A stretch of 64,000 nucleotides of DNA from NCBI RefSeq assembly GCF_058153355.1, contig NZ_CM177019.1; one strand, 5' to 3'. The position numbers were made by a program, and so were the translations under genes. The notes under the pieces are model-generated. The model did not search any database. It saw only the letters and a list, made by a program, of their open reading frames with translations, and was not told the DNA's origin. This document shows positions 8,124 through 62,120 of this stretch, piece after piece (the first letter of the stretch is position 1; each line of letters opens with the position of its first letter).

Positions 8124-8599
8124 GGTTAGCTCCGAAGCAAAAGCCGGATAATGTTAGCCATAAATAAGGTTAAAAAGACGCGCTGACAATACGCCTTTTG
8201 ACAGCATTTTTCACCTCCTAACTACTTAAAATTGCTATCATTCGTTATTGTTATCTAGTTGTGCAAAACATGATAATGTAGCCAACAAATCATACTACAA
8301 TTTATTAACTGTTAACTATAATGGCGAAAAGCGATGCTGAAAGGTGTCAGCTTTGCAAAAATTTGATTTGGATCACGTAATCAGTACCCAGAAGTGAGTA
8401 ATCTTGCTTACGCCACCTGGAAGTGACGCATTAGAGATAATAACTCTAATGTTTAAACTCTTTTAGTAAATCACAGTGAGTGTGAGCGCGAGTAAGCTTT
8501 TGATTTTCATCGGTTAAGCAAATCATCACCGCACTGACTATACTCTCGTATTCGAGCAGATGATTTACTAAAAAAGTTTAACATTATCAGGAGAGCATT

Positions 8600-11316: not shown

Positions 11317-12742
11317 TAATGCCGATCAGTTAAGGATCAGTTGACCGATCCAGTGGCTGTGTAAGAATCCGGAAACGCTCACTTGTTTCCGGATTTTTTT
11401 ATGCACATTGGACAGGCTCTTGATCTGGTATCCCGTTACGATTCTCTGCGTAACCCACTGACTTCTCTGGGGGATTACCTCGACCCCGAACTCATCTCTC
11501 GTTGCCTTGCCGAATCAGGTACTGTAACGCTACGCAAGCGCCGTCTTCCCCTCGAAATGATGGTCTGGTGTATTGTTGGCATGGCGCTTGAGCGTAAAGA
11601 ACCTCTTCACCAGATTGTGAATCGCCTGGACATCATGCTGCCGGGCAATCGCCCCTTCGTTGCCCCCAGTGCCGTTATTCAGGCCCGCCAGCGCCTGGGA
11701 AGTGAGGCTGTCCGCCGCGTGTTCACGAAAACAGCGCAGCTCTGGCATAACGCCACGCCGCATCCGCACTGGTGCGGCCTGACCCTGCTGGCCATCGATG
11801 GTGTGTTCTGGCGCACACCGGATACACCAGAGAACGATGCAGCCTTCCCCCGCCAGACACATGCCGGGAACCCGGCGCTCTACCCGCAGGTCAAAATGGT
11901 CTGCCAGATGGAACTGACCAGCCATCTGCTGACGGCTGCAGCCTTCGGCACGATGAAGAACAGCGAAAATGAGCTTGCTGAGCAACTTATAGAACAAACC
12001 GGCGATAACACTCTGACGTTAATGGATAAAGGTTATTACTCACTGGGACTGTTAAATGCCTGGAGCCTGGCGGGAGAACACCGCCACTGGATGATACCTC
12101 TCAGAAAGGGAGCGCAATATGAAGAGATCAGAAAACTGGGTAAAGGCGATCATCTGGTGAAGCTGAAAACCAGCCCGCAGGCACGAAAAAAGTGGCCGGG
12201 ACTGGGAAATGAAGTGACAGCCCGCCTGCTGACCGTGACGCGCAAAGGAAAAGTCTGCCATCTGCTGACGTCGATGACGGACGCCATGCGCTTCCCCGGA
12301 GGAGAAATGGCGGATCTGTACAGTCATCGCTGGGAAATCGAACTGGGATACAGGGAGATAAAACAGACGATGCAACTGAGCAGGCTGACGCTGAGAAGTA
12401 AAAAGCCGGAGCTTGTGGAGCAAGAGCTGTGGGGTGTCTTACTGGCTTATAATCTGGTGAGATATCAGATGATTAAAATGGCGGAACATCTGAAAGGTTA
12501 CTGGCCGAATCAACTGAGTTTCTCAGAATCATGCGGAATGGTGATGAGAATGCTGATGACATTGCAGGGCGCTTCACCGGGACGTATACCGGAGCTGATG
12601 CGCGATCTTGCAAGTATGGGACAACTTGTGAAATTACCGACAAGAAGGGAAAGGGCCTTCCCGAGAGTGGTAAAGGAGAGGCCCTGGAAATACCCCACAG
12701 CCCCGAAAAAGAGCCAGTCAGTTGCTTAACTGACTGGCATTA
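11317..12742 (+). mobile_element. IS4 insertion sequence, complete (1426 bp)
   Basis: imperfect terminal inverted repeats TAATGCCGATCAGTTAAG (left) and TAATGCCAGTCAGTTAAG (reverse complement of right end), 16/18 identical; length 1426 bp; single transposase ORF; 11-bp direct repeats. Confidence 0.9.
11401..12729 (+). CDS. IS4-family DDE transposase
   Basis: 442-aa ORF from ATG 11401 (track ORF starts at alternative TTG 11383); C-terminal Y(2)R(3)E(6)K signature [15 protein letters not shown] typical of the IS4 family. Confidence 0.9.
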
Positions 12743-18533: not shown

Positions 18534-19376
18534 ATGCATTCACTCCAACGTAAAGTTCTGCGTACTATTTGTCCGGACCAAAAAGGTCTGATCGCACGTA
18601 TTACCAATATTTGCTACAAGCACGAGTTAAATATCGTGCAGAACAATGAATTTGTTGATCACCGTACCGGGCGCTTTTTTATGCGCACGGAACTGGAAGG
18701 AATTTTTAATGATTCCACCCTGCTGGCGGATCTCGACAGCGCATTGCCAGAAGGCTCCGTACGTGAGCTGAATCCTGCCGGTCGTCGCCGGATAGTGATT
18801 CTGGTCACTAAAGAGGCGCATTGCCTTGGCGATTTGTTGATGAAAGCCAATTACGGCGGCCTGGATGTCGAAATCGCGGCAGTTATTGGTAACCACGATA
18901 CTTTACGTTCTCTGGTTGAGCGTTTTGATATTCCGTTTGAGCTGGTAAGTCATGAAGGATTAAGTCGCAACGAGCACGATCAAAAGATGGCGGATGCCAT
19001 TGATGCTTATCAGCCTGACTACGTGGTGCTGGCGAAGTATATGCGGGTATTAACGCCAGAATTTGTGGCACGCTTCCCGAATAAGATCATCAATATTCAC
19101 CATTCATTCCTGCCAGCGTTTATCGGCGCACGTCCTTATCACCAGGCCTATGAACGTGGCGTGAAGATTATTGGCGCAACCGCTCACTATGTGAATGACA
19201 ATCTGGACGAAGGTCCAATCATCATGCAGGACGTTATTCATGTCGATCATACCTACACAGCTGAAGATATGATGCGCGCAGGTCGTGACGTCGAGAAAAA
19301 CGTCTTAAGTCGCGCACTCTACAAAGTACTGGCGCAGCGCGTCTTTGTTTACGGTAATCGGACGATTATTCTTTAA
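18534..19376 (+). CDS. purU: formyltetrahydrofolate deformylase
   Basis: 280-aa ORF with N-terminal ACT domain and formyltransferase domain. Confidence 0.93.
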   Translation: MHSLQRKVLRTICPDQKGLIARITNICYKHELNIVQNNEFVDHRTGRFFMRTELEGIFNDSTLLADLDSALPEGSVRELNPAGRRRIVILVTKEAHCLGDLLMKANYGGLDVEIAAVIGNHDTLRSLVERFDIPFELVSHEGLSRNEHDQKMADAIDAYQPDYVVLAKYMRVLTPEFVARFPNKIINIHHSFLPAFIGARPYHQAYERGVKIIGATAHYVNDNLDEGPIIMQDVIHVDHTYTAEDMMRAGRDVEKNVLSRALYKVLAQRVFVYGNRTIIL

Positions 19377-19536: not shown

Positions 19537-19621
19537 GGTGGGGTTCCCGAGCGGCCAAAGGGAGCAGACTGTAAATCTTCCGTCATCGACTTCGAAGGTT
19601 CGAATCCTTCCCCCACCACCA
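19537..19621 (+). tRNA. tyrT: tRNA-Tyr (anticodon GUA), variant copy with G-to-T change in the 3' strand of the anticodon stem at 19579
   Basis: 85-nt sequence ending CCA; identical to the second copy except one base (UCUUC instead of UCUGC). Confidence 0.85.
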
Positions 19622-19655
19622 TCTCAAGCATTACATCAAAATTTGAATTATCCCT

Positions 19656-19740
<85 letters not shown>

Positions 19741-19985
19741 TCACTTTCAAAAACCCCTGTATTCTCCAACGAATCCGTAACTGAATATTCTGCCCATACG
19801 GGGAAGGATGAGAAGCTTCGACTAAGGTTCGACTCGAGCGCCAGCGAGAGAGCGTTGCCGCAGGCAACGACCCGTAGGGCGAAGCGCGCAGCGCTGAGTA
19901 ATCCTTCCCCCACCACCATCACTTTCAAAAACCCCTGTATTCTCCAACGAATCCGTAACTGAATATTCTGCCCATACGGGGAAGG

Positions 19986-20075
19986 ATGAGAAGCTTCGAC
20001 CAAGGTTCGACTCGAGCGCCAGCGAGAGAGCGTTGCCGCAGGCAACGACCCGTAGGGCGAAGCGCGCAGCGCTGA
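19986..20075 (+). CDS. tpr: protamine-like Arg-rich 29-aa peptide (tpr-type ORF, repeat unit 2)
   Basis: [38 protein letters not shown] inside the repeat unit. Confidence 0.45.
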
Positions 20076-20163
20076 GTAATCCTTCCCCCACCACCATCAC
20101 TTTCAAAAGTTCCTGAAATCCCCAACAAATCCGCAATTAAATATTCTGCCCATACGGGGAAGG

Positions 20164-20253
20164 ATGAGAAACTTCGACCAAGGTTCGACTCGAGCGCCAG
20201 CGAGAGAGCGTTGCCGCAGGCAACGACCCGTAGGGCGAAGCGCGCAGCGCTGA
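20164..20253 (+). CDS. tpr: protamine-like Arg-rich 29-aa peptide (tpr-type ORF, repeat unit 3)
   Basis: [32 protein letters not shown]; same frame and position within the repeat unit. Confidence 0.4.
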
Positions 20254-20341
20254 GTAATCCTTCCCCCACCACCATCACTTTCAAAAGTTCCTGAAATCCC
20301 CAACAAATCCGCAATTAAATATTCTGCCCATACGGGGAAGG

Positions 20342-20431
20342 ATGAGAAACTTCGACCAAGGTTCGACTCGAGCGCCAGCGAGAGAGCGTTGCCGCAGGCA
20401 ACGACCCGTAGGGCGAAGCGCGCAGCGCTGA
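20342..20431 (+). CDS. tpr: protamine-like Arg-rich 29-aa peptide (tpr-type ORF, repeat unit 4)
   Basis: identical to the unit 3 ORF. Confidence 0.4.
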
Positions 20432-20620
20432 GTAATCCTTCCCCCACCACCATCACACCTTTAAATACTCAAAACCTGTTACTTCAAGCTAATTTGCCCC
20501 GTGGCACCGCGTTTTCCGGACCTACAATATCCTCCCCTGTAGGTCAGATAAGCGAATCACTCCGCACCGTGCCCATAAAAAAACCCCGCCGAAGCAGGGT
20601 CTATGTGAACTAAAATTCGC

Positions 20621-21298
20621 TTAGTGGCGAGCACGCACCAACTGATATTTCCGTGTCAGATACTCCACCGGTACGCTCCAGATGTGCACCAGACGCGAGA
20701 ACGGGAACAGCAGGAATAACGTCATCCCCAGCACCAGGTGCAGACGGAAGATAAACGCCACACCATCAAGATGCTGGGACGCACCACCGTGGAAGGTCAC
20801 CACCGACTGTGCCCAGCCAACCAGTTTCATCATCTCGCTACCGTCCATATGCTGGGCGGAGAACGGAATGGTCAGTAGGCCCAGTGCGCACTGGATAACG
20901 AGTAGCGACAGGATCAGGATGTCCGCCCCAGTAGTCGTTGCTCGTACGCGTGGGCTGGTCAAACGACGCTTCAGCAACAGCACGCCGCCAATCAGGCACA
21001 GCACGCCGCTGGCACCACCAGCAAACATCGCCATTTTCTGTTTCACTTCAATTGGCAGCCACGCTTCATACATCCAGTGCGGCGTCAGCATACCGAAGAA
21101 GTGGCCGACAAAAATCCCCAGAATTCCGATATGGAACAGGTTCGACGCCAGGTTCATCCCTTTGCGATCCAGCATCTGGCTGGATGCCGCGCGCCAGGTG
21201 TACTGCCCGTAGTCATAGCGCAGCCAGCTACCAATCAGGAAGACCGCCCCGGCTATGTACGGGTAGATATCAAAGAAGAACATATTCAGGAATTGCAT
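20621..21298 (-). CDS. narI: respiratory nitrate reductase A gamma subunit (cytochrome b)
   Basis: 225-aa hydrophobic ORF; last gene of narGHJI. Confidence 0.95.
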
Positions 21299-22008
21299 TA
21301 GTGCTGTCCTCCGGTGGTGATATTCAGATATTGCGGCGCGACGGCACCGGCAAAGCGACGCTGATGAGCAGTGATTGCTGAATCACCGCAGCCTTTGTCA
21401 GCAAAGAATTTAACCTGCTCTTCTTCCCAGACGGCATCCAGCGCCTGTGGCGTATCGTCGCGCGCTTCATCAGCAATTTTTTCCGCCACTTTGTCGCTGT
21501 CGATAGCGGTATTCGCCAGTTTCAGCAGCAGATCAAACAGCACGGCATAACGGCTTTCACGTTGTTGCAGACGCGCGCTCAGCAATGCCAGAATCGGCGC
21601 AATATCTTTCAAACCCTCCACTGCTTCGCTTTGCGGAAGCTGCGCCAGATACTCCAGATACAGTGGCAAATGGTCTGGCAATTCGCGGCTGTTTAACTGC
21701 AAACCGTGCTGCTCATACTGTGCCAGCAGGTCCACCATCGCCTGACCGCGATCGCGGGATTCCCCGTGAACGTGTTCAAACAGCAACAGCGACGTTGCGC
21801 GACCACGATCGAACAGTTCGCTGTACTGCGCCTGGGCATCGAGCGGATCCATCGTCGTTAAATCGCGCAGGAAAATGCCCAGCGCATGGGCATCTTCTTT
21901 CGACAGATTTTTCGACGCAGCAATCGCCTCAAACATCTCTTGTTGATGCTGCCATAAGGCAGCATCCGGATATTCAAGGAGACGCGATACAATCACGAGT
22001 TCGATCAT
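21298..22008 (-). CDS. narJ: nitrate reductase assembly chaperone NarJ
   Basis: 236-aa [29 protein letters not shown]...; overlaps narI start by 1 bp. Confidence 0.95.
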
Positions 22009-23543
22009 GGGTGCGGCTCCGTTTTACTGGTCACGTCGATGGCATCGATACGACGGCTGTTAAACAGATTGAATTTGGTATCTGAACCGTGGCAGCCATC
22101 ACCAAAGGTAAAGCCGCAGCCATTTTTCTCCGGGAAGGCTTCCCGCGCCAGTTCACGATGACTGCTCGGCACCACAAAGCGATCTTCGTAGTTAGCAATC
22201 GCCAGATAACGGTACATCTCCTGTGCCTGCGCTTCTATCAGGCCGACCTCTTCCAGCGCACGGGTATCAGCTTTACCGTCAACGGTTTCAGCACGTTTGT
22301 AATGACGCATCGCCAACATACGTTTCAGTGCGCGCAGTACCGGTTGGGTGTCGCCTGCGGTCAGCAGATTCGCCAGATACTGTACCGGAATACGCAGGCT
22401 TTCGACGTCTGGCAGAATGCCATTGCTGCCCAGCTCACCCGCATCTGCCGCAGACTGAATCGGCGACAGAGGTGGCACGTACCAGACCATCGGCAGTGTG
22501 CGATATTCCGGATGCAGCGGCAGCGCCAGTTTCCATTCCATTGCCATTTTATAAACCGGCGACTGCTGTGCGGCTTCAATAACGCTCAGCGGAATACCGT
22601 CTTTAATCGCCTGCTCGATGACTTTCGGATCGTTCGGATCGAGGAACACGTCCAGCTGACGCTGGTAGAGATCTTTCTCGTTCTCGGTGCTGGCTGCACG
22701 TTCAATCGCGTCGGCATCGTACAGCAGCACGCCAAGATAACGGATACGACCGACACAGGTTTCAGAGCACACCGTCGGCTGACCGGCTTCAATACGCGGA
22801 TAGCAGAAGATGCACTTCTCAGACTTACCGCTCTTCCAGTTGAAGTAGATTTTTTTGTACGGGCATCCGGTGATGCACATACGCCAGCCACGGCATTTGT
22901 CCTGGTCGATCAGGACGATGCCATCTTCTTCACGCTTGTAAATCGCACCGCTCGGGCAGGTCGCCACACATGCCGGGTTCAGGCAGTGTTCGCACAGGCG
23001 TGGCAAATACATCATGAAGGTGTTTTCGAACTGGCTATACATCGCCTTCTGGATGTTGTCGAAGTTCTTGTCTTTCGCCAGTTTGTCAAACTCGCCGCCC
23101 AGGTCATCTTCCCAGTTTGGCCCTTTTTCGATTTTCGCCATCCGTTCGCCGGTAATCAGCGAACGTGGACGGGCAATCGGCTGCGATTTGCTGCCTTCCG
23201 GCGCGGTATGCAGGTTCTGATAGTCAAAATCGAACGGCTCGTAATAATCGTCGATCCCCGGCAGATGCGGGTTAGCGAAAATTTTACCCAGCAGCATGGC
23301 GCGGTTACCCATGCGCGGTTGCAGTTTGCCGTTGATTTTACGGATCCAGCCGCCTTTGTATTTTTCCTGGTTTTCCCAGTCTGTCGGGAAGCCCTGGCCC
23401 GGCTTGGTTTCCACGTTGTTGAACCACGCGTATTCCACGCCTTCACGGCTGGTCCAGACGTTTTTACAGGTCACTGAACAGGTGTGGCAACCGATGCACT
23501 TATCCAGATTCAGCACCATGCCGACTTGTGAACGAATTTTCAT
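22005..23543 (-). CDS. narH: respiratory nitrate reductase A beta subunit (Fe-S)
   Basis: 512-aa ORF with multiple ferredoxin-type Cys clusters (CIGCHTCSVTC, CEHCLNPACVATCP). Confidence 0.97.
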   Translation of the reverse strand: MKIRSQVGMVLNLDKCIGCHTCSVTCKNVWTSREGVEYAWFNNVETKPGQGFPTDWENQEKYKGGWIRKINGKLQPRMGNRAMLLGKIFANPHLPGIDDYYEPFDFDYQNLHTAPEGSKSQPIARPRSLITGERMAKIEKGPNWEDDLGGEFDKLAKDKNFDNIQKAMYSQFENTFMMYLPRLCEHCLNPACVATCPSGAIYKREEDGIVLIDQDKCRGWRMCITGCPYKKIYFNWKSGKSEKCIFCYPRIEAGQPTVCSETCVGRIRYLGVLLYDADAIERAASTENEKDLYQRQLDVFLDPNDPKVIEQAIKDGIPLSVIEAAQQSPVYKMAMEWKLALPLHPEYRTLPMVWYVPPLSPIQSAADAGELGSNGILPDVESLRIPVQYLANLLTAGDTQPVLRALKRMLAMRHYKRAETVDGKADTRALEEVGLIEAQAQEMYRYLAIANYEDRFVVPSSHRELAREAFPEKNGCGFTFGDGCHGSDTKFNLFNSRRIDAIDVTSKTEPHP

Positions 23544-26500
23544 TTTACGCTCTCCTGTACCTGGTCATTGCCTTCGCCATCTAACCAGTCAATGTTCTTC
23601 ATCTTACGCACTACAACAAATTCATCGCGGTTAGAACCTACAGTGCCGTAGTAGTTAAAGCCGTATGCCAGATGGGCATAGCCACCGATCATATGCGTCG
23701 GTTTCGGCGTGATACGGGTGACCGAGTTATGAATACCGCCGCGCTGACTGGTGATTTCTGAACCAGGCAGGTTAACGATACGTTCCTGCGCGTGGTACAT
23801 CATGGTCATCCCTGCCGGAACACGCTGGCTGACAACCGCACGGGCAGTCAATGCACCGTTGCTGTTGAAGACTTCAATCCAGTCGTTATCGGCGATACCC
23901 AGCTCTTTGGCATCGGCTTCACTCAACCAGACCACCGGACCACCGCGACCTAAAGTCAGCATCAGCAGGTTGTCGCTGTAGGTGGAGTGGATACCCCACT
24001 TCTGGTGCGGTGTCAGGAAGTTGAGCGCTTTTTCCGGATTACCGTTAGATTTCTGGCCCATCACTTCTTTCACCGAACGGGTGTCGATCGGCGGACGATA
24101 AACCAGCAGGCTTTCACCGAAATCACGCATCCACTGGTGATCCTGATACAGCTGCTGACGGCCAGAGAGCGTACGCCACGGGATCAGCTCGTGAACGTTG
24201 GTGTAACCGGCGTTGTAAGAAACATGTTCATCTTCAAGGCCAGACCAGGTCGGGCTGGAGATGATTTTGCGCGGCTGCGCCTGAATGTCACGGAAGCGGA
24301 TCTTCTCCTCTTCTTTATTCAGCGCCAGATGCGTATGGTCACGACCGGTAAACTCACTCAATGCCGCCCAGGCTTTCACGGCCACCTGGCCGTTGGTTTC
24401 TGGTGCCAGCGTCAGGATCATCTCTGCTGCATCAATTGCGGTGTTGAGCATCGGCTGGCCTTTTGCCGGACCTTCCGCTTTGGTGTAGTTGAGCTTACGC
24501 AGCAGATCCATCTCGCTCTGGGTGTTCCAGGCAATCCCTTTACCGCCGTTACCGATTTTCTCCATCAGCGGACCGATAGAGGTAAAGCGTTCGTAAGTTG
24601 CCGGATAATCGCGCTCAACGACCATAATGTGCGGTGCAGTTTTACCTGGGATCAGGTCGCATTCGCCTTTTTTCCAGTCTTTCACATCCAGCGGCTGCGC
24701 CAGTTCAGCGGCAGAGTCGTGCTGGATCGGCAGCGTAACGATGTCGGTTTCTTTGCCCAGATGACCAACGCACACTTCGGAGAATTTCTTCGCGATGGCT
24801 TTGTAGATTTCCCAGTCGCTTTTCGCTTCCCAGGCCGGATCGACCGCCGCAGACAGCGGGTGAATAAACGGATGCATATCCGAAGTATTCATGTCGTCTT
24901 TTTCGTACCAGGTCGCCGTCGGCAAAATGATGTCGGAATAGAGACAGGTGCTCGACAGACGGAAGTCCAGCGTCACCACCAGATCCAGCTTGCCTTCCAG
25001 ACCGTTGTCCTGCCAGTCCACTTCTTCCGGCTTCACGCCGCCCTGCTGACCCAGGTCTTTACCCTGGATACCGTGCTCCGTCCCCAGCAGGTACTTGAGC
25101 ATAAACTCATGACCTTTACCGGAAGAACCGAGCAGGTTAGAACGCCAGATGAACAGGTTACGCGGGTGGTTTTTACCGTTTTCTGGTTGTTCTGCCGCAA
25201 AACGGATAGAACCCTCTTTCAGGGATTTCACCGTATAGTCCACCGGATTCATCCCGGCTTTTTCTGCTTCGCGAGCGATAGTCAGCGGGTTAGTGCCTAA
25301 CTGCGGCGCAGACGGCAGCCAGCCCATGCGTTCCGCACGGACGTTAAAGTCGATCAGATGTCCGGTATAGCGGGATTTATCCGCCATCGGCGACAGCAAC
25401 TCTTCCGCAGTCACGGTTTCATAACGCCACTGGCTGGAGTGGTTATAGAAATAAGAGGTGCTGTTCATGTGACGAGCCGGACGCTGCCAGTCAAGGGCAA
25501 ACGCCAGCGGCTGCCAGCCGGTTTGCGGACGCAGTTTTTCCTGACCTACATAGTGCGCCCAGCCACCACCGCTCTGACCGACGCAGCCGCAGAAAATCAG
25601 CATGTTGATCAGACCGCGATAGTTCATATCAAGGTGATACCAGTGGTTCAGACCTGCACCAACGATGATCATTGAACGACCGTGGGTCTTATCAGCGTTG
25701 TCAGCAAATTCACGGGCAATGCGGATAATCTGGCTGCGAGAAACGCCAGTGATCTGCTCGGCCCATGCAGGGGTGTAGGCTTTCACGTCGTCATAGCTGG
25801 TTGCGCAGTTAACGTCGTTCAGACCACGTTCCAGACCGTAGTTTGCCAACGTCAGATCATAAACGGTCGTCACCAGTGCAGTGCTGCCATCAGCCAGTTG
25901 CAGGCGTTTCACCGGCAGCTTGTGCAGCAGCACGTTTTCCAGTTCCACTTTGTTGAAGTGTTCCGTGCCGTCGCCACCAAAGTATGGGAAGCCCACTTCA
26001 GCGATCTCATCCTGGCTACCCAGCAGGCTCAGTTGCAGCTCGGTTTCTTCGCCAGTTTTGCCGTCGCGCTGCTCAAGATTCCATTTGCCCTTCTCGCCCC
26101 AGCGGAAGCCAATAGAACCGTTCGGCGCAACCATTTCTCCATTGGTATTAAAGGCGACAGTTTTCCATTCCGGATTGTTTTCCTGGCCCAGCGCATCAAC
26201 CAGATCAGCAGCGCGCAGCATACGACCTGCGGCGTAGTAACCGTCGCGTTCTTCCAGCATCACCAGCATCGGCATGTCGGTGTAGCGACGCACATAGTCG
26301 GTGAAATACTGGCTTGGGTTGTCGAGGTGGAATTCACGCAGCATCACGTGGCCCATCGCCAGCGCCATTGCTGCGTCGGTGCCCTGCTTCGGTGCCAGCC
26401 ACAGATCGCACAGTTTGGCGATTTCAGCGTAGTCCGGCGTGACGGCAACGGTTTTGGTGCCTTTGTAGCGCACTTCAGTAAAGAAGTGAGCATCCGGGGT

Positions 26501-27283
26501 ACGCGTCTGCGGCACGTTAGAGCCCCAGGCGATGATGTAGCTGGAGTTGTACCAGTCAGCGGATTCCGGTACGTCAGTCTGCTCACCCCAGGTTTGTGGA
26601 GATGCAGGAGGCAGATCGCAGTACCAGTCGTAGAAGCTTAAGCAAGTACCGCCAAGCAGCGAGAGATAACGCGCACCCGACGCGTAAGAAACCATCGACA
26701 TTGCCGGAATTGGCGAGAAGCCAGCGACACGGTCCGGGCCGTAGTTTTTGATGGTGTAAACGTTAGATGCGGCGATCAGTTCGTTCACTTCCTGCCAGGA
26801 AGAACGAACAAAACCACCGCGTCCACGCGCCTGCTTAAAGCTTTTCGCTTTATCGGCGTCTTCAATGATAGAAGCCCATGCCTCAACCGGATCGCTATGC
26901 AGTGCCTTCGCTTCACGCCACATTTTCATCAGGCGTTTGCGCATCATCGGGTATTTCAGACGGTTGGCGCTGTAAAGATACCAGGAGTAGCTGGCACCGC
27001 GCGGGCAGCCGCGAGGTTCATGGTTTGGCAGATCCGGGCGAGTACGCGGATAGTCAGTCTGCTGGGTTTCCCAAGTGACCAGACCGTTTTTAACGTAGAT
27101 TTTCCAGCTGCAGGAGCCGGTGCAGTTTACCCCATGGGTAGAGCGGACGATTTTGTCATGCTGCCAACGCTGGCGATATCCATCCTCCCAGTCACGGTTG
27201 GTATTGAGAAGCTGGCCATGCCCATCGGCAAAGGTTTCGCCCTTCTGTTTGAAGTAGCGAAACCGGTCCAGGAATTTACTCAT
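23540..27283 (-). CDS. narG: respiratory nitrate reductase A alpha subunit (molybdopterin)
   Basis: 1247-aa ORF MSKFLDRFRYFKQKGETFADGHGQ...; N-terminal HxxxCxxxC cluster motif. Confidence 0.97.
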   Translation of the reverse strand: MSKFLDRFRYFKQKGETFADGHGQLLNTNRDWEDGYRQRWQHDKIVRSTHGVNCTGSCSWKIYVKNGLVTWETQQTDYPRTRPDLPNHEPRGCPRGASYSWYLYSANRLKYPMMRKRLMKMWREAKALHSDPVEAWASIIEDADKAKSFKQARGRGGFVRSSWQEVNELIAASNVYTIKNYGPDRVAGFSPIPAMSMVSYASGARYLSLLGGTCLSFYDWYCDLPPASPQTWGEQTDVPESADWYNSSYIIAWGSNVPQTRTPDAHFFTEVRYKGTKTVAVTPDYAEIAKLCDLWLAPKQGTDAAMALAMGHVMLREFHLDNPSQYFTDYVRRYTDMPMLVMLEERDGYYAAGRMLRAADLVDALGQENNPEWKTVAFNTNGEMVAPNGSIGFRWGEKGKWNLEQRDGKTGEETELQLSLLGSQDEIAEVGFPYFGGDGTEHFNKVELENVLLHKLPVKRLQLADGSTALVTTVYDLTLANYGLERGLNDVNCATSYDDVKAYTPAWAEQITGVSRSQIIRIAREFADNADKTHGRSMIIVGAGLNHWYHLDMNYRGLINMLIFCGCVGQSGGGWAHYVGQEKLRPQTGWQPLAFALDWQRPARHMNSTSYFYNHSSQWRYETVTAEELLSPMADKSRYTGHLIDFNVRAERMGWLPSAPQLGTNPLTIAREAEKAGMNPVDYTVKSLKEGSIRFAAEQPENGKNHPRNLFIWRSNLLGSSGKGHEFMLKYLLGTEHGIQGKDLGQQGGVKPEEVDWQDNGLEGKLDLVVTLDFRLSSTCLYSDIILPTATWYEKDDMNTSDMHPFIHPLSAAVDPAWEAKSDWEIYKAIAKKFSEVCVGHLGKETDIVTLPIQHDSAAELAQPLDVKDWKKGECDLIPGKTAPHIMVVERDYPATYERFTSIGPLMEKIGNGGKGIAWNTQSEMDLLRKLNYTKAEGPAKGQPMLNTAIDAAEMILTLAPETNGQVAVKAWAALSEFTGRDHTHLALNKEEEKIRFRDIQAQPRKIISSPTWSGLEDEHVSYNAGYTNVHELIPWRTLSGRQQLYQDHQWMRDFGESLLVYRPPIDTRSVKEVMGQKSNGNPEKALNFLTPHQKWGIHSTYSDNLLMLTLGRGGPVVWLSEADAKELGIADNDWIEVFNSNGALTARAVVSQRVPAGMTMMYHAQERIVNLPGSEITSQRGGIHNSVTRITPKPTHMIGGYAHLAYGFNYYGTVGSNRDEFVVVRKMKNIDWLDGEGNDQVQESVK

Positions 27284-27374
27284 CGGTTTTCTCCTGTGGG
27301 AGCCTGTCGGCTCTCTGATAAATCAACATTGCTAATGTTTAAGGGCAAGGTAACGCTCTGAAACAGCGTGGGAA

Positions 27375-27388
27375 TTGATAACGATCAA
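27375..27388. promoter_or_regulatory. FNR box TTGAT-AACG-ATCAA in narG promoter
   Basis: perfect match to FNR consensus TTGATnnnnATCAA about 95 bp upstream of the narG start codon. Confidence 0.7.
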
Positions 27389-27675
27389 GAGTGATGGGGA
27401 TGAAAAATAAAGTAAATTCCTAAGATACCCCTTAAGGATAATTAATAAATTCAACATAAATCACTGTAAATTAAGATATTTTGCATCCATAGTTATTTAG
27501 ACTATTGAGATTTTTATGCAGATGGGTATTAAGGAGTATTCCCCATGGGTAACATATTAATGGCTCTTAATGAAAACCGGCGAAATACGCCACACTTCAT
27601 AAGGATGTTGTAACTAAATGACAGGTAAAAAAAGCGCGACATCATGCCGCGCAAAGGATAATCAAATATTAAGAT

Positions 27676-29067
27676 TTATTTTTTAGAATGCCGACCATAT
27701 ACCGCCCAGGTAATCACTACGCAGGCGATATAGAAAATCAAAAATACTTTCATTGCGCCGACTGGCGAACCCGTTAATGCCAGCGAGCTACCGAACGCTT
27801 TCGGGATAAAGAAGCCACCAATCGCGCCAATCGCAGAGATGAAACCCAGCGCCGCCGCCGTGTCGGTTGCCGCTTCACGCATCGCACGTTCGTCAGAGCC
27901 CCCTTCTGCTTTCACGCGATCCATTGTCAGTTTACGGAAGATCACGGAAATCATCTGAAAAGTGGAACCACTACCCAGCCCAGCTGTCAGGAACAGCGCC
28001 AGGAAGACTGCGAAGAACGCCATGAAGCTTCCGCCCTGTCCGTCAGTCGGTAAGGTCAGGAACAGCAGGCCGCTGAAAATCGCCATCAGGATAAAGTTCA
28101 CCAGTGTGACACGAGTTCCGCCCAGACGGTCAGATAATGCACCACCTGCAGAACGCGCCAGCGCACCAATAAACGGCCCGAAGAAAGCGTATTGCAGAAT
28201 CTGAACATCCGGGAACTGCGTTTTTGACAGCATCGCAAAGCCCGCGGAGAAGCCGATGAAGGAGCCGAAGGTTGCCAGATACAGCAGGCTCATAATCCAC
28301 AGATGACCCCGTTTGAGTACCGGCAACTGCTCCTTGATGGAGGCTTTCGAGGTAGCAAGATCGTTCATGCCAAACCACGCCGCAATGGTGAAGATGGCAA
28401 GGAACGGCACCCATACCCAGGACGCATTCGCCAGATACAGCTCAGTCCCATCCGGCTGTTTGACACCCTGGCTACCAAATACTGCGAAAATCGACAGTGA
28501 TACCACCAGCGGAGCAACCAACTGCATGACGCTGACGCCCATGTTGCCCAGACCACCATTCAGACCCAGCGCGCCACCCTGCTTCTGTTTCGGAAAGAAG
28601 AAGCTGATGTTTGCCATACTGGATGCGAAGTTCGCGCCAGCAAAGCCGCACAGCAGAGAGATGATGATGAAGACGCTATAAGGCGTGGAGGTATCCTGCA
28701 CGGCAAAACCCAGCCAGACACAAGGAATAATCAGAATACCAGTGCTGAACGCCGTCCAGCGACGACCACCGAAGATAGGAACCATAAAGGAGTATGGAAC
28801 ACGTAATAACGCGCCAGAAACCGAAGGCAGCGCAGTCAACATAAATAGCTGATCGGTCGTAAAATTAAAACCGACTTTCGGTAAGTGCACCGCAACAGCG
28901 CTGAACAACATCCATACGCAAAACGCCAGCAGCAGACAGGGAACGGAAATCCACAGGTTGCGGCTGGCAATACGTTGACCGCGTTGTTGCCAGAACGCAG
29001 GATCTTCCGGTCGCCAATCTGTAATGACAGCTCCAGTAGCCCTTTCGGGGGCGGATGAGTGACTCAT
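27676..29067 (-). CDS. narK: nitrate/nitrite antiporter NarK (MFS)
   Basis: ORF 27676..29073; second ATG gives 463 aa MSHSSAPERATGAV...; hydrophobic MFS-like. Confidence 0.92.
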   Translation of the reverse strand: MSHSSAPERATGAVITDWRPEDPAFWQQRGQRIASRNLWISVPCLLLAFCVWMLFSAVAVHLPKVGFNFTTDQLFMLTALPSVSGALLRVPYSFMVPIFGGRRWTAFSTGILIIPCVWLGFAVQDTSTPYSVFIIISLLCGFAGANFASSMANISFFFPKQKQGGALGLNGGLGNMGVSVMQLVAPLVVSLSIFAVFGSQGVKQPDGTELYLANASWVWVPFLAIFTIAAWFGMNDLATSKASIKEQLPVLKRGHLWIMSLLYLATFGSFIGFSAGFAMLSKTQFPDVQILQYAFFGPFIGALARSAGGALSDRLGGTRVTLVNFILMAIFSGLLFLTLPTDGQGGSFMAFFAVFLALFLTAGLGSGSTFQMISVIFRKLTMDRVKAEGGSDERAMREAATDTAAALGFISAIGAIGGFFIPKAFGSSLALTGSPVGAMKVFLIFYIACVVITWAVYGRHSKK

Positions 29068-29126
29068 AGACACCTCTGATACTCGTTTCGATGTCTGCCA
29101 CCTTAGTGTCTGTAGCTAAAGGCAAT

Positions 29127-29140
29127 TTGATGTAAATCAA
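29127..29140. promoter_or_regulatory. FNR box TTGAT-GTAA-ATCAA in narK promoter (proximal)
   Basis: perfect FNR consensus about 65 bp upstream of the narK start. Confidence 0.65.
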
Positions 29141-29164
29141 ACGATAAGATAACTTTATCTATCA

Positions 29165-29178
29165 TTGATATTTATCAT
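29165..29178. promoter_or_regulatory. second FNR-like box TTGAT-ATTT-ATCAT in narK promoter (distal)
   Basis: 9/10 match to FNR consensus, centred 38 bp upstream of the proximal site. Confidence 0.55.
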
Positions 29179-29405
29179 TACCCATAGTGAGTACAGTGAT
29201 TTCATAAAAATTATGAGATTTTTCACGGTGCTGTAAAATCCCTACTCTTACCGATGTAAAGCGACTAACCACGCGGCAAATAAGGAGTAACTCTTTCCGG
29301 GTATGGGTATACTTCAGCCAATAGCCGAGAATACTGCCATTCCAGAATGTATCGTCACATTCATTAAGGTTATTGCTCATTTAAAGCCTGAAGGAAGAGG
29401 TTTAC

Positions 29406-31202
29406 ATGCTTAAACGTTGTCTCTCTCCGCTCACCCTGGTTAATCAGGTTGCGCTTATTGTGTTGCTTTCTACTGCTATTGGACTGGCGGGGATGGCGGT
29501 TTCTGGCTGGCTGGTACAAGGCGTTCAGGGCAGCGCCCATGCGATCAACAAAGCGGGATCGCTGCGCATGCAAAGTTACCGTCTGTTGGCGGCAGTGCCA
29601 TTAAGCGAGAAAGACAAGCCCTTAATTAAAGAGATGGAACAAACGGCATTTAGCGCCGAGTTAACCCGAGCAGCAGAACGAGACGGACAACTGGCGCAAC
29701 TACAGGGTTTACAAGATTACTGGCGTAATGAGCTGATCCCTGCGCTGCTGCGTGCACAAAACCGCAAAACGGTGTCAGCGGATGTCAGCCAGTTTGTTGC
29801 CGGGCTTGATCAACTGGTATCTGGTTTTGACCGCACCACGGAAATGCGCATTGAGACAGTGGTGCTGGTCCATCGGGTAATGGCGGTATTTATGGCACTT
29901 TTACTGGTGTTCACTATTATCTGGTTGCGGGCGCGACTGCTACAACCGTGGCGGCAGTTGTTGGCAATGGCGAGTGCCGTCAGCCATCGCGATTTTACCC
30001 AACGCGCGAACATCAGCGGGCGCAACGAAATGGCTATGCTTGGAACTGCGTTGAACAATATGTCTGCAGAACTGGCGGAAAGTTACGCCGTACTTGAGCA
30101 GCGGGTTCAGGAGAAAACCGCCGGGCTGGAACATAAAAATCAGATCCTCTCTTTTTTATGGCAGGCCAACCGCCGTTTGCATTCCCGCGCCCCGCTGTGT
30201 GAACGCCTGTCACCTGTACTCAACGGCTTACAGAATTTAACCCTGCTACGTGATATCGAACTGCGGGTGTATGACACTGATGATGAAGAGAATCATCAGG
30301 AGTTTACCTGCCAGCCAGATATGACCTGCGATGATAAAGGCTGTCAGCTCTGCCCGCGCGGTGTACTCCCCGTTGGCGATCGCGGCACAACCCTGAAGTG
30401 GCGGCTGGCTGACTCTCATACGCAGTACGGTATTTTGCTGGCAACCCTGCCGCAGGGGCGTCATCTTAGTCATGATCAACAACAACTGGTGGATACCCTG
30501 GTTGAACAACTCACCGCCACGCTTGCGCTGGATCGCCATCAGGAACGTCAGCAACAGTTGATCGTGATGGAAGAGCGTGCCACCATTGCGCGCGAACTGC
30601 ATGATTCTATTGCCCAATCTCTCTCTTGCATGAAGATGCAGGTGAGTTGTTTACAGATGCAGGGCGATGCGCTGCCAGAAAGCAGCCGCGAACTGTTAAG
30701 TCAGATCCGTAACGAACTGAATGCATCCTGGGCGCAGTTGCGTGAATTGCTCACCACATTCCGCTTGCAGCTCACCGAGCCTGGATTACGTCCGGCGCTG
30801 GAGGCGAGTTGCGAAGAGTACAGCGCCAGGTTTGGCTTCCCGGTGAAGCTGGATTATCAATTGCCGCCTCGTCTGGTGCCTTCGCATCAGGCAATCCATC
30901 TGTTGCAAATTGCCCGTGAGGCATTAAGTAACGCCCTCAAACATTCGCAAGCGAGTGAGGTCGTGGTGACAGTGGCGCAAAACGATAATCAGGTCAAACT
31001 GACCGTCCAGGATAACGGCTGCGGCGTGCCTGAAAATGCCATCCGCAGCAATCACTACGGCATGATAATAATGCGCGACCGTGCGCAAAGTTTACGGGGC
31101 GATTGCCGCGTCCGCCGTCGTGAATCAGGTGGCACCGAAGTGGTGGTCACCTTTATTCCCGAAAAAACTTTCACAGACGTCCAAGGAGATACCCATGAGT
31201 AA
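29406..31202 (+). CDS. narX: nitrate/nitrite sensor histidine kinase NarX
   Basis: 598-aa ORF with N-terminal transmembrane/periplasmic sensing region and C-terminal HATPase-like region. Confidence 0.95.
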
Positions 31203-36275: not shown

Positions 36276-36567
36276 CAGTTATATCTCCTCCGATGACGAA
36301 AATCGGGGGAGATAATATAAATTCCTGCTTATTGTATTTCTTCATACTACCTGAACAGGTCGTTAATCAGAATTGCGAGCCTGTACCACAACCTGCACTA
36401 AACCACTGCAACAGCTGTTGAAAAGCCGGAATGTACTCTTTATTGCAAACATTTCAGGGATGAAGTGAAGATGAATTGAGACGTAATATCCACACCAAGC
36501 CGGCGTTATCCGGTGAGGCGCAATGTTGCGGGGGCTTTATCCCTGGTGGCATTGGTTGCTGGAAAGA

Positions 36568-36633
36568 GAAAACCCCCGCACGTTGAGAGGTAAAACCTGA
36601 CAACAGAACGGGGGCTAATCTTGAACCATCAAC
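36568..36633 (-). ncRNA. rdl: Rdl-type antisense RNA (antitoxin of ldr), copy 1, approximate coordinates
   Basis: placed by the known ldr/rdl geometry (rdl lies antisense in the ldr 5' leader, about 48 bp upstream of the ldr start); region contains a GC-rich hairpin CCCCCGCACG...; no ORF. Confidence 0.45.
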
Positions 36634-36680
36634 AATTCAAGAATAGCCGCAAAATGTTGTCATTACAACAAGGCGGCTAT

Positions 36681-36788
36681 ATGACGCTCGCGCAGTTTGC
36701 CATGACTTTCTGGCACGACCTGGCAGCACCGATCCTGGCGGGGATTATTACCGCAGTGATTGTCAGCTGGTGGCGTAACCGGAAGTAA
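36681..36788 (+). CDS. ldr: Ldr-family small toxic membrane peptide (35 aa)
   Basis: ATG..TAA ORF MTLAQFAMTFWHDLAAPILAGIITAVIVSWWRNRK, followed by hairpin and T-run terminator. Confidence 0.8.
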   Translation: MTLAQFAMTFWHDLAAPILAGIITAVIVSWWRNRK

Positions 36789-37102
36789 GGTGAAAACGGG
36801 CGTCAGGCTGCCGTGATGGCAATATGCGCCCGAAACCGGCCGCAGGGGTAACAGCCTGCGGCCCTTTTTGTCTTTATCTCTTCTGCAAATAAATATTGGC
36901 AACCCGAGCTGGAAGCATCATCCAGAGCACTCATGAAACGACTGTAACAACTGTTGAAAAACCGGAATGCACTCTTCATTGCAAACATTTCAGGGATGAA
37001 GTGAAGATGAATTGAGACGTAGTATCCACACCAAGCCGGCGTTATCCGGTGAGGCGCAATGTTGCGGGGGCTCTATCCCTGGTGGCATTGGTTGCTGGAA
37101 AG

Positions 37103-37168
37103 AGAAAACCCCCGCACGTTGAGAGGTACAACCTGACAACAGAACGGGGGCTAATCTTGAAACCAGAC
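37103..37168 (-). ncRNA. rdl: Rdl-type antisense RNA, copy 2, approximate coordinates
   Basis: same position within LDR unit 2 as copy 1. Confidence 0.45.
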
Positions 37169-59635: not shown

Positions 59636-59643
59636 GAACCTTA
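59636..59643. repeat. IS66-family target-site duplication, left copy (GAACCTTA)
   Basis: same 8-mer flanks the other end at 62113..62120. Confidence 0.85.
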
Positions 59644-59673
59644 GTAAGCGGCTCGCCAGAACCGTATTGATAT

Positions 59674-61245
59674 TTACTGAGAGCTCAGATCAACTTTCCA
59701 GGGCAACAGATCGCGTACCCGGTTTGCCGGCCAGTCCTGGATATGTTCAATGACGTAACGCAGCCACTTTTCTGGCTCCACATTGTTCAGACGGCATGTG
59801 CCGATCAGCGAGTACAACACCGCAGCATGTTCACCACCGCTGTCAGAACCCGCGAAGAGCCAGTTTTTCCGGCCTACGGCCACTCCCCGTAAGGCGTTCT
59901 CTGCGATGTTGTTGTCGATTTCCACCCAGCCATTACTGCAGTACACGTTCAGTGCATCCCACTGTTTCAGCAGGTATGCGAACGCTTTTGCCGTGTCCGA
60001 GTGACGCGACAGTGTTTTCATCTGTTGCTGTATCCAGTCATACAGTGACTGCATCAGTGGCGCGGCTCTGGCTTTTCTTGCCGCCAGACGCTGTTCTGCT
60101 GAACAGCCCCGGACCTCTGCCTCGATGGCATACAGTTCACCGATACGCTGCAGGGCTTCCGTGGTGATGTCGGTGGGCACTCTTGCATGCACATCGTGGA
60201 TTTTTCTCCGGGCATGAGCCATACATGCGGCTTCCGTTATTCTGCCGGATTCGTACAACGCCCGGTAACCACCGTAAGCATCGGCCTGAAGCACTCCGCT
60301 GTAACCGGCCAGATGATTCTGTGGATGGATACCTTTCCGGTCCGGGCTGTACGCGAACCAGACCGCCGGAGGCATTTCCGAACCGGCGTTACGGTCATCA
60401 CGAACGTAGACCCACAGCCGGGCAGTCCTTGTTTTACCGCTGCCCGGCTCCTGGACCGGAACGGGGATATCATCGGCATGGACTTTACCGGGCATCAGCA
60501 CATACTGGCGCAGGATGTCATACAGCGGTTCCAGCAGTTCAGCAACAGCACCTGTCCAGCGCCCCAGTGTGGCACGGCTCAGCTCCACGCCCTGACGACG
60601 GTATATTTCTGACTGGCGGTATAACGGCAGATGGTCTGCATATTTTCCAGCGACAACATGGGCCAGAAGCCCCGCTCCGGCATAACTGCGTGCAATGGGT
60701 TTTGAAGGCACCGGAGCCTGCACGATATGGTCGCACCGGCAACAGGCCAGTTTCGGACGTTGTGTTTCGATAACCTTAAAGGCGCTGCTGATAAGCTCCA
60801 GTTGCTCTGACACATCACATCCCAGAGAACTGAGTTCGCCACCACAGGCCGGGCAGCATTCCTCTTCCGGACGGATGACCCGGGTTTCACGGGGAAGTGA
60901 GGCAGGTAACGGTTTACGGGCTGAAGACTGGCGCAGGGGAGATGGCAGTACCGGGTCATATTGCTCACCCAGCGTTTCCGCCATTTCTTCCTGAAGAGCG
61001 CTGATTCGCTCCTGTGCTTCCTGTATCTGCCGTTCGGTTTTTGCACGAAGTTTTTCTGAGCTTTTACCGAACTGCATGCGCTGCAGTTTTGCAACCAGCG
61101 CCTTCAGCCGGTTGATTTCGGAAGCATAAGCCGCCACCCGCTGTGAGAGCAGGCGGTTGTATTTCGCCATCTGGCGGATGGTGTCCTGTTGCGTCTGCAA
61201 CAGTGCCCGCAGGCGGGCATTCTCATGAGCAAGTGAGGTGTCCAT
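59674..61245 (-). CDS. IS66-family transposase (TnpC/orf3)
   Basis: 523-aa ORF with N-terminal coiled-coil/leucine zipper, CxxC...CxxC zinc-finger-like motif (CCPACGGEL...ACCRCDH) and DDE region. Confidence 0.9.
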
Positions 61246-61264
61246 ATCCTCACTTTACAACGGG

Positions 61265-61612
61265 TTATATGCGGATGCCAGCGCGTTCCGTTCGTTTCGG
61301 GTGTTTCCAGTCGATGCCCTCAAGAAGCATGGATAACTGGGCCGGAGTAAGGTGCACCTTGCCGTCACGGGTGACCGGCCAGACGAAGCGGCCCCGCTCC
61401 AGGCGTCTGGTGAAGAGGCACAGTCCGTCACTGTCAGCCCACAACACTTTTATCTGGTCACCCCGGCGTCCGCGGAAGATGAACAGATGCCCGGAGAACG
61501 GGTCATCCTTCAGGACGTTCTGAACTTTTGAGGCCAGGCCGTTAAAGCCATTTCGCATATCGGTGATACCTGCAACCAGCCAGATACGCGAACCTGCAGG
61601 GAGAGATATCAC
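61265..61612 (-). CDS. IS66 Orf2 (TnpB) accessory protein
   Basis: 115-aa ORF MISLPAGSRIWLVAGITDMRNGFNGLASKV... typical of IS66 orf2. Confidence 0.85.
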   Translation of the reverse strand: MISLPAGSRIWLVAGITDMRNGFNGLASKVQNVLKDDPFSGHLFIFRGRRGDQIKVLWADSDGLCLFTRRLERGRFVWPVTRDGKVHLTPAQLSMLLEGIDWKHPKRTERAGIRI

Positions 61613-62037
61613 CGTCTCAGCTCCTGTATAAGCAAGGACAGCAGATTTTCATTCACTGCCCCGTTCAACCGAAGGGTGCCGTTTCTGAACGTAATCTCAC
61701 AGGAGATGCTGTGTATTTCCGGTGTTACTGACGGTCTTGCGGTCAGTGGCTCATTAGCCGGAGCAGTTGGGAGTTGGGCATCAATAGTGACAGGAATTAA
61801 CTGAGATTCTCTGCCTGATTCTGATGATGGCAATTTTATCTTCCCCTGCCGCCATTTCTGACGCCATTTGAACAACAGATTGGCATTAATACCATTGTCC
61901 AGGGCCAGTCTGGAAATTGAAACACCTGGCTGGAATGATGCTTCTATGAGTCGTTGTTTGAATTCAGGAGGATAATTCAGGCACCCTTTAGGCCTTCCCG
62001 GAGAGGCATTTTTTTGTATATCTGACATTTTTATCAC
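61609..62037 (-). CDS. IS66 Orf1 (TnpA) HTH accessory protein
   Basis: 142-aa ORF; ATGA overlap with orf2 typical of IS66-family translational coupling. Confidence 0.8.
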   Translation of the reverse strand: MIKMSDIQKNASPGRPKGCLNYPPEFKQRLIEASFQPGVSISRLALDNGINANLLFKWRQKWRQGKIKLPSSESGRESQLIPVTIDAQLPTAPANEPLTARPSVTPEIHSISCEITFRNGTLRLNGAVNENLLSLLIQELRR

Positions 62038-62112
62038 CCACTATTAATTTAGTGGTGGATACTTTGTCCAAAGCATCGGGAATTTGCCAGACGGTCCTGA
62101 TAAGACGCTTAC

Positions 62113-62120
62113 GAACCTTA
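62113..62120. repeat. IS66-family target-site duplication, right copy (GAACCTTA)
   Basis: identical to 59636..59643. Confidence 0.85.

Follow-up and report, generated by a model that had tools for sequence, protein, structure and literature searches.

Known, intact FNR sites at narG and narK, and a second narK box confined to Escherichia coli and E. albertii

FNR is an oxygen-sensing regulator that activates the nitrate-respiration genes narG and narK of E. coli. Its sites upstream of the two genes in the DNA analyzed here are already known from textbooks, intact and ordinary; the new detail is that a second box upstream of narK is confined to E. coli and E. albertii. The whole stretch under analysis (the window) comprises 64 kb, and the span considered here represents the ordinary narXL/narK/narGHJI regulatory stretch of a chromosome of the E. 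coli/Shigella type. narG (ATG at 27283) and narK (27676..29067) are encoded on the minus strand, and narX (ATG at 29406) is encoded on the plus strand, separated from narK by an intergenic region of 338 bp. The narK coding sequence (463 aa) is intact, with two amino acid changes relative to K-12 and zero internal stops. All seven nar genes (narGHJI, narK and narXL) are full length and carry 0–7 amino acid changes relative to their K-12 counterparts, and the fnr gene itself lies outside the window. The boxes, the NarL heptamers, a terminator, the seed complementarity of a small RNA and the intact genes are all directly visible in the sequence. The result serves mainly as a positive control, in that three real boxes were placed from raw sequence.

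The FNR consensus TTGAT-N4-ATCAA was scanned across the whole 64 kb window, allowing either zero or at most one mismatch. Two perfect boxes were found against 0.11 expected, two or more were obtained in 0 of 100 shuffles, and both sit in nar intergenic regions. One is the narG box, TTGATAACGATCAA (gene strand TTGATCGTTATCAA; 27375..27388, minus strand; centre 27381.5, putative position -41.5). The first-pass annotation had described this box as a perfect consensus, and it indeed contains no mismatches. The other is the proximal box of narK, TTGATGTAAATCAA (gene strand TTGATTTACATCAA; 29127..29140, minus strand; centre 29133.5, putative position -41.5), which is likewise free of mismatches. Each is identical to its K-12 counterpart, base for base. 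Shuffling at local composition produced a perfect box at frequencies of 0.14% for the narK-narX intergenic region and 0.18% for the narK-narG region. At one mismatch or fewer, the window showed no enrichment (six boxes found, 3.18 expected). Two matches from this relaxed scan, at 19000 (inside purU) and 53454 (inside ycgV), were taken as chance, as the count fits expectation; the Myers 2013 table entries consulted give no FNR peak at either gene.

In K-12, FNR ChIP-seq peaks cover both the narG and the narK proximal 14-mers, which score 14.78 and 17.06, respectively, by PWM in the data tabulated by Myers 2013. Table 1 of the same study classes the narG and narK operons as FNR-'Activated' and places the top site at -41.5 for both, in agreement with the positions given above (Myers 2013). 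Conservation points in the same direction. Of 41 narX-narK-narG loci, 40 have a perfect narG box and the remaining one has a single mismatch, and the narK proximal box is free of mismatches in each of the 46 database loci with adjoining narX and narK genes. More than 15 enterobacterial genera were sampled, including Escherichia, Citrobacter, Klebsiella/Raoultella, Enterobacter, Kluyvera, Kosakonia, Cedecea and Pluralibacter, among others; across them, the half-sites of both boxes are invariant while the flanks diverge. No FNR box is present at the narU paralogues. The assignment of the narG box and the narK proximal box as known class II FNR sites is supported; occupancy by FNR, dependence on it and placement at -41.5 are K-12 results carried over to the window by sequence identity.

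The elements downstream of the two boxes are consistent with this assignment. At class II CRP/FNR promoters, a 29-bp rule relates the FNR or CRP centre to the -10 element (PMC9314961). A -10-like hexamer, TACCTT (27347..27352, minus strand), probably serves narG and starts 29 bp downstream of the FNR centre; the surrounding GTTACCTT is conserved across genera. Its narK equivalent, TAAGGT (29105..29100, minus strand), lies 29 bp from the proximal centre in a -10 region, TAAKGT, that is also conserved across genera. With FNR set at -41.5, transcription of narG would start at 27340, giving a 57-nt leader (27284..27340, minus strand), and that of narK at 29092, giving a 25-nt leader. A generic sigma-70 consensus scan found a promoter at neither FNR site, an outcome to be expected of class II promoters lacking a -35 element and one that does not count against them. 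Its one strong match, TTTACA-16-CATAAT (29237..29210), was set aside as chance, as it is not conserved outside Escherichia. The narG leader contains a conserved hairpin, GAGCC-GACA-GGCTC, ahead of the Shine-Dalgarno sequence; the leader is near-invariant in 30 sequences, and covariation is absent.

Heptamers matching the NarL consensus TACYYMT were positioned relative to the starts set by FNR at -41.5. Upstream of narG, a perfect heptamer, TACCCCT, lies at -89 (27426..27432, plus strand) and is conserved across genera, and three further perfect heptamers, TACCCAT (-185), TACTCCT (-195) and TACCCAT (-208), occupy 27522..27551 on the minus strand. The -195/-185 pair is invariant across genera. 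Footprints of NarL-P at narG have been described for a '-89 region' and a '-195 region' (PMC4549865), and all four heptamers fit these published regions. Upstream of narK, an inverted heptamer pair, TACCCAT (-90) and TACTCAC (-98), occupies 29179..29193, and its CTACTCAC..GGGT arrangement is conserved across genera. Two candidate upstream heptamers, TACTCCT (-194) and TACCCAT (-214), lie at 29283..29309 on the minus strand, in a layout that appears to parallel the -195/-208 cluster of narG.

IHF is required at narG, as stated in Myers 2013 and PMC4549865. An IHF-like element, TTACAGTGATTTA (27460..27472, minus strand), is centred at about -126 of narG, a weak candidate with three mismatches to WATCAANNNNTTR. 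The K-12 element matches WATCAANNNNTTR equally weakly, and the region varies among strains and genera. IHF acts at about -125 of the K-12 narG promoter, and an IHF consensus scan of the window at one mismatch or fewer returned nothing near this position.

In comparison with the K-12 narGHJI promoter, no change is found in the FNR box, in the -10-like hexamer or in the heptamers at -89, -185, -195 and -208, and identity is continuous from about -105 to +15. The differences from K-12 form a substitution cluster at about -106 to -150, in and around the IHF region, where the changes inside the IHF-like element fall in degenerate spacer positions. Two further substitutions relative to K-12 fall in the leader, C->T at +16 and G->A at +29. 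A megablast search with a 50-bp leader query carrying the T allele, limited by its 28-base word size, found zero complete E. coli genomes at 100%. The K-12 narK promoter, whose inputs are FNR, NarL, IHF and Fis, is identical in both boxes, in their 38-bp spacing and in all of the sequence from -109 to the ATG. Three substitutions distinguish the 338-bp narK-narX intergenic region from that of K-12, at 29273 (-181), 29246 (-154) and 29200 (-108). That at 29246 converts TACCCTT to TACTCTT, and none of the three falls in an FNR box.

As a whole, the nar boxes are very probably explained by class II FNR activation at narG and narK, combined with a NarL/IHF module and the small RNA NarS. Under anoxia, a [4Fe-4S] FNR dimer would occupy the two perfect TTGAT-N4-ATCAA boxes, one upstream of narG and one upstream of narK, both at -41.5. 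In the class II manner, FNR would overlap the -35 region and recruit RNA polymerase to the weak -10 hexamers TACCTT and TAAGGT. Nitrate induction would proceed via phospho-NarL acting on TACYYMT heptamers at about -89/-90 and from about -185 to -214, and an IHF bend at about -125 would draw the distal NarL cluster toward the promoter. The narK transcript would stop at a Rho-independent terminator, and processing of its 3' end would yield NarS, predicted to pair with the ribosome-binding site of nirC.

The second narK box calls for a more graded reading. This distal FNR-like box, TTGATATTTATCAT (gene strand ATGATAAATATCAA; 29165..29178, minus strand), has one mismatch and is centred at 29171.5, which would place it at -79.5. 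The two narK centres (29133.5 and 29171.5) are 38 bp apart, exactly as had been annotated. Of the classical -41.5/-79.5 arrangement to which they had been assigned, the proximal position holds, being the K-12 position of -41.5 (Myers 2013); for the distal box, the spacing holds, but recognition as a site in independent genome-scale data and conservation across genera do not. Only three of 48 loci carry the distal box, namely the window, E. coli and E. albertii, and the same position in the other 45 has 3–10 mismatches. Outside E. coli/E. albertii, every genus carries a T-run in place of the right half-site ATCAA, as does even Escherichia sp. MOD1-EC7003. The -79.5 box is most reasonably viewed as an auxiliary or low-importance FNR site specific to one lineage. 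Because it is confined to E. coli and E. albertii, the '-79.5' box should not be carried to other genera untested.

There is about an even chance that the distal box is a neutral chance likeness, arisen in the Escherichia lineage from a conserved A+T-rich ATGA...TTTT segment beside the NarL heptamer pair. Other genera keep the left ATGA and the T-run at this position (3–6 mismatches), so few substitutions would suffice to make ATGATAAATATCAA. Matches with one mismatch or fewer are not enriched across the window, as noted above, and support for the distal box therefore comes from its position. Consistent with a chance origin, the 'number of FNR binding sites' at narK is tabulated as 1 (Myers 2013). 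Against it, a box with at most one mismatch occurs within 60 bp upstream of the proximal box in just ~1.6% of local shuffles, and the box is kept in both E. coli and E. albertii.

The same position argues for a rival reading, to which we assign a lower, though appreciable, probability. In this case, the distal box would be a fully functional second FNR site, with a dimer at -79.5 co-activating or dampening narK as part of a tandem-FNR promoter. A single mismatch, a spacing of exactly 38 bp from the proximal box and the low shuffle frequency favor this reading. The 52-mer spanning both narK boxes also occurs unchanged in 5391 of the 5417 E. coli records, but the intergenic sequence around it is about as invariant in E. 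coli, and conservation within the species carries little weight for this reason. In K-12 databases, narK is reported to have FNR sites at both -41.5 and -79.5, attributed to Kolesnikow 1992 and Bonnefoy & DeMoss 1992, and such entries would likewise favor a second site. A full-text literature search for narK with '79.5' or 'two FNR' found nothing relevant, the primary 1992 papers being beyond its reach. The center of the K-12 FNR ChIP peak falls between the two boxes in the Myers 2013 data, at a ChIP-seq resolution too coarse to split two sites 38 bp apart. Against a functional second site stand the single site counted in that study, the absence of the distal box from its stringent PWM predicted-site list (Myers 2013) and the T-run that replaces ATCAA outside E. 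coli/E. albertii and in MOD1-EC7003. Helical phase also counts against it: the spacing corresponds to 3.62 turns, so that the boxes are not on the same face of the DNA. The favored upstream FNR position is -82.5, not -79.5.

Natural tandem-FNR promoters are known at yfiD (-40.5/-93.5) and ndh. Like these, narK has two FNR-type boxes before one start, and its downstream box occupies the class II position; unlike them, its upstream spacing is 38 bp and its upstream box is lineage-specific. The literature searched documents no effect of the upstream narK box. A further, tentative proposal, which we consider rather unlikely, is that the distal box is a recent gain in E. coli/E. albertii, made by few substitutions in an ancestral ATGA...TTTT, and that a second FNR dimer tunes narK or the divergent narXL unlike in other enterobacteria. 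If true, such a gain would be a small, datable instance of binding-site turnover in a textbook promoter.

CRP and FNR sites are related inverted repeats, but the notion that the boxes are chance palindromes or sites of a CRP-family protein other than FNR, such as CRP, is already effectively refuted: the half-sites are of the FNR type TTGAT/ATCAA and not TGTGA/TCACA, the chance probability is ~0.001–0.002 per region, the identical K-12 sequences are FNR-bound in vivo at operons listed as FNR-activated (Myers 2013), and the half-sites are invariant across genera with divergent flanks.

The regulatory architecture had also been described as intact next to IS-disrupted loci. The first part of this description stands, as the boxes, heptamers, -10-like hexamers, IHF-like element and full-length genes are all present, and in this IS-bearing strain both the nar control region and the nar genes look fully functional. 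'Next to' is imprecise. The closest IS belongs to the IS4 family (11351-12725), occupies an intergenic position and is separated from narI by about 8 kb, and treA, the only disrupted gene found, is split by an IS66-family element some 30 kb away. As a separate observation, the NarX protein allele is common, and loci carrying the same protein differ from the window at 16–26 positions in 3.8 kb.

The span also contains NarS, a small RNA derived from the narK 3' UTR that the first-pass annotation left unmentioned. Mapped from K-12 narS (b4813), it occurs in the window in a short, 61-nt form (27627..27687, minus strand) that includes the Rho-independent terminator of narK (stem 27652..27634 followed by the U-run, minus strand). 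An Rfam 15 scan did not match NarS. The RNA sits at the same place as the NarS described by Wang et al., at the narK stop codon and terminator, with 61 nt here vs 63 nt in Salmonella (Wang 2020, PMC7038943). That work defined a seed at nt 21-33 forming a 14-bp duplex with nirC; in the window, NarS nt 21-35 form a 15-nt perfect Watson-Crick match to K-12 nirC -13..+2, which covers the ribosome-binding site. By analogy with the described sRNA, the NarS of the window is predicted to be RNase E-processed and Hfq-dependent. K-12 NarS is 184 nt as annotated and ~230 nt according to Wang et al.; it is lengthened by a 128-bp insertion in the narK 3' UTR, upstream of the narG promoter, that is missing from the window. 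The long K-12 NarS is one allele of a polymorphism, and the short, Salmonella-like form is found in ~54% of complete E. coli genomes as well as in the window.

Two perfect copies of the FNR box (TTGAT-N4-ATCAA), the inverted repeat of the oxygen-sensing regulator FNR, are present in the window. One lies upstream of narG at 27375-27388 (TTGATAACGATCAA), and the other, the proximal narK box, lies at 29127-29140 (TTGATGTAAATCAA). A distal FNR-like box with one mismatch occupies 29165-29178 (TTGATATTTATCAT). The two narK box centres (29133.5 and 29171.5) are separated by exactly the 38 bp proposed in the first-pass annotation, which had also correctly recognized the perfect narG consensus. On the basis of the start positions and strands of narG (27283, minus), narK (29067, minus), and narX (29406, plus), the span carrying these boxes takes in the narG promoter, all of narK including the 3′ UTR, and the control region between the divergent narK and narX. 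FNR sites at narG and narK are textbook biology, already known, and the boxes serve as a positive control. The first-pass observation is confirmed, its interpretation is supported, and two small additions emerge: lineage restriction of the distal (-79.5) box and a length polymorphism of the small RNA NarS.

The 64 kb window holds no further perfect box (0.11 expected), and none of 100 shuffles contained two. When each intergenic region was dinucleotide-shuffled alone, a perfect box arose by chance in 0.14% (narK-narX) and 0.18% (narK-narG) of trials. Window-wide, boxes with at most one mismatch show no excess (six observed vs. 3.18 expected), and the distal narK box is remarkable for its position only; approximately 1.6% of local shuffles gave such a box in the 60 bp immediately ahead of the proximal box. 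Another one-mismatch box, at 8363-8376 (TTGATTTGGATCAC), precedes the adhE ATG by 224 bp and is the reverse complement of GTGATCCAAATCAA, the K-12 adhE/ychE site under an FNR ChIP-seq peak (Myers et al., 2013; PMC3688515). The remaining two, within purU and ycgV, were taken as chance occurrences.

Around the boxes, the narG and narK promoter regions align without gaps to those of E. coli K-12 MG1655, and all three boxes are identical. In Myers et al., TTGATTTACATCAA (narX/narK; PWM score 17.06) and TTGATCGTTATCAA (narG; 14.78) are high-stringency predictions coinciding with FNR ChIP-seq peaks, and both operons belong to the directly FNR-activated class, with the top-scoring site at -41.5 (PMC3688515); the coordinates tabulated there agree with the aligned sites after a 777-bp offset between two K-12 genome versions. 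Transfer of the K-12 -41.5 position to each perfect box would place the narG start at 27340, with a 57-nt leader, and the narK start at 29092, with a 25-nt leader. Both putative starts are supported by the positions of NarL heptamers and by hexamer spacing. Counted from 27340, perfect heptamers (TACYYMT) occur at narG -89, -185, -195, and -208, and NarL-P footprints have been described in the “-89 region” and “-195 region” (PMC4549865). A TAnnnT hexamer follows each FNR centre by 29 bp (TACCTT at narG, TAAGGT at narK), the class II spacing given in PMC9314961. The narK layout parallels that of narG, with heptamers at -90/-98, -194, and -214. The K-12 start data are compatible with the positions of the FNR boxes. 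Substitutions relative to K-12 in the narG promoter are concentrated from approximately -106 to -150, around the IHF region, which differs among strains and genera; the window keeps a weak IHF-like core (TTACAG-N4-TTA) with its centre at -126. At 29246, approximately -154 of narK, a window-specific G-to-A change on the gene strand converts the NarL-heptamer-like TACCCTT to TACTCTT; K-12, strain JNE23-011, and five other assemblies carry G.

A NarK-based scan limited to a single genome of each species gave 80 loci. A perfect FNR box precedes narK in all 46 database loci with a divergent adjoining narX, at 64.5-68.5 bp from the ATG where the protein match reaches residue 1, with distances of 87.5-88.5 bp for Rahnella and Limnobaculum; in a few loci the offset looks larger because the match begins inside NarK. 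Among the 41 loci also holding narG, a perfect box lies 93.5-113.5 bp ahead of that gene in 40, the sole exception being a Limnobaculum locus with a one-mismatch box. The genera covered include Escherichia, Citrobacter, Pseudocitrobacter, Trabulsiella, Kluyvera, Enterobacter, Lelliottia, Leclercia, Klebsiella/Raoultella, Kosakonia, Cedecea, Pluralibacter, and Phytobacter, among others. In the alignments, the half-sites are invariant, and the -10 hexamers and NarL heptamers are conserved, while the remaining DNA is divergent. The narU paralogues in the scan (approximately 72-76% identity), located immediately upstream of a narG-like gene that is presumably narZ, have no FNR box.

The distal narK box has a much narrower distribution. 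Only the window and the E. coli and E. albertii loci have a box with at most one mismatch at the exact 38-bp spacing on the upstream side; the other 45 loci, including Escherichia sp. MOD1-EC7003 (ATAATAAATATTCA), show 3-10 mismatches at this position. Genera lacking the box conserve the left ATGA and a T-run, and the right half-site ATCAA is absent. Within E. coli, 5391 of 5417 records share an identical 52-mer across both narK boxes, which adds little given a similar degree of invariance throughout the intergenic region. K-12 databases describe narK FNR sites at -41.5 and -79.5, citing Kolesnikow (1992) and Bonnefoy and DeMoss (1992). We accept that the distal box is real as an annotated feature of the sequence. 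The match to this arrangement suggested by the first-pass annotation holds for the 38-bp spacing and for the -41.5 site as placed by Myers et al.; the second site is uncounted in that study, where the “number of FNR binding sites” is 1 for narK and the distal box is missing from the stringent list (PMC3688515). As 38 bp corresponds to 3.62 helical turns, two FNR dimers would not lie on the same DNA face. Neutral resemblance to an FNR site is a reading to which we give about even credence. A real regulatory role, with the position of the box and its database annotation on its side, is entertained more tentatively.

The first-pass view that the regulatory architecture is intact was borne out at the sequence level, for the promoters as well as for seven full-length genes: narG, narH, narJ, narI, narK, narX, and narL are as long as their K-12 counterparts, are free of internal stops, and differ from them by 0-7 amino acids. 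Nearly all nucleotide differences from K-12 are synonymous. Nucleotide identity to K-12 is 94.4-97.2% for narGHJI (20621-27283) and 97.7-98.9% for narK, narX, and narL, a step that may mark the edge of an ancient recombination event close to the narK-narG spacer. The 57-nt narG leader (27284-27340, minus strand) is almost invariant in more than 15 genera and contains a hairpin (GAGCC-N4/5-GGCTC), without covariation, just before the Shine-Dalgarno sequence. At leader position +16 (27325), the window has a C-to-T change in a column with conservation of 90% or more, and a 100% match to 27296-27345 was not found in any complete E. coli genome.

The window is part of a chromosome of the E. coli/Shigella type. 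Over its narK region (query 27000-29700), identity is 98% with the majority of complete E. coli genomes and 99.6% with two human isolates from Japan. The genes are ordered opp-adhE-tdk-hns-galU-rssAB-purU-tyrTV-narIJHG-narK-narXL-ychO-cha-kdsA-prfA-hemA-prs-ychF-ycgV-dha-treA. The nar cluster is untouched by its nearest IS elements. The first, an intact IS4-family element (11351-12725; 448-aa transposase), is intergenic between adhE and tdk, at a site where K-12 has only a degenerate ISZ/insZ remnant. The second, a 2.47-kb IS66-family element (59643-62113; ORFs of 523, 115, and 142 aa), splits treA; the K-12 coordinates on its two sides share 8 bp, which fits a target-site duplication. Unlike K-12, the window lacks IS5U in the ychE-oppA interval. 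Four RtT repeats stand in tandem after two tRNA-Tyr genes (19537-20452) vs. one annotated in JNE23-011, and two ldr/rdl toxin-antitoxin modules are present (36567-37168) vs. three in K-12.

The first-pass annotation, right about the boxes, did not mention that the same span encodes NarS, an sRNA from the narK 3′ end (Wang et al., 2020; PMC7038943) annotated in K-12 as b4813. Here NarS is a 61-nt short form (27687..27627, minus strand) ending in the intact narK terminator. Its nucleotides 21-35 are perfectly complementary over 15 nt to the K-12 nirC ribosome-binding site, in agreement with the published seed (PMC7038943). K-12 carries a 128-bp insertion directly after the narK stop codon (NC_000913.3 1279349-1279477) that the window lacks (junction 27670/27675). 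We take this insertion to resemble an ERIC/IRU repeat. By junction query, 2457 of the 5386 complete E. coli genomes carry it. The narK-narG spacer in other genera is approximately 390-397 bp, as in the window. Given the short form in other genera and the mixed junction counts, short NarS is ancestral and the long K-12 NarS is one allele of a polymorphism.
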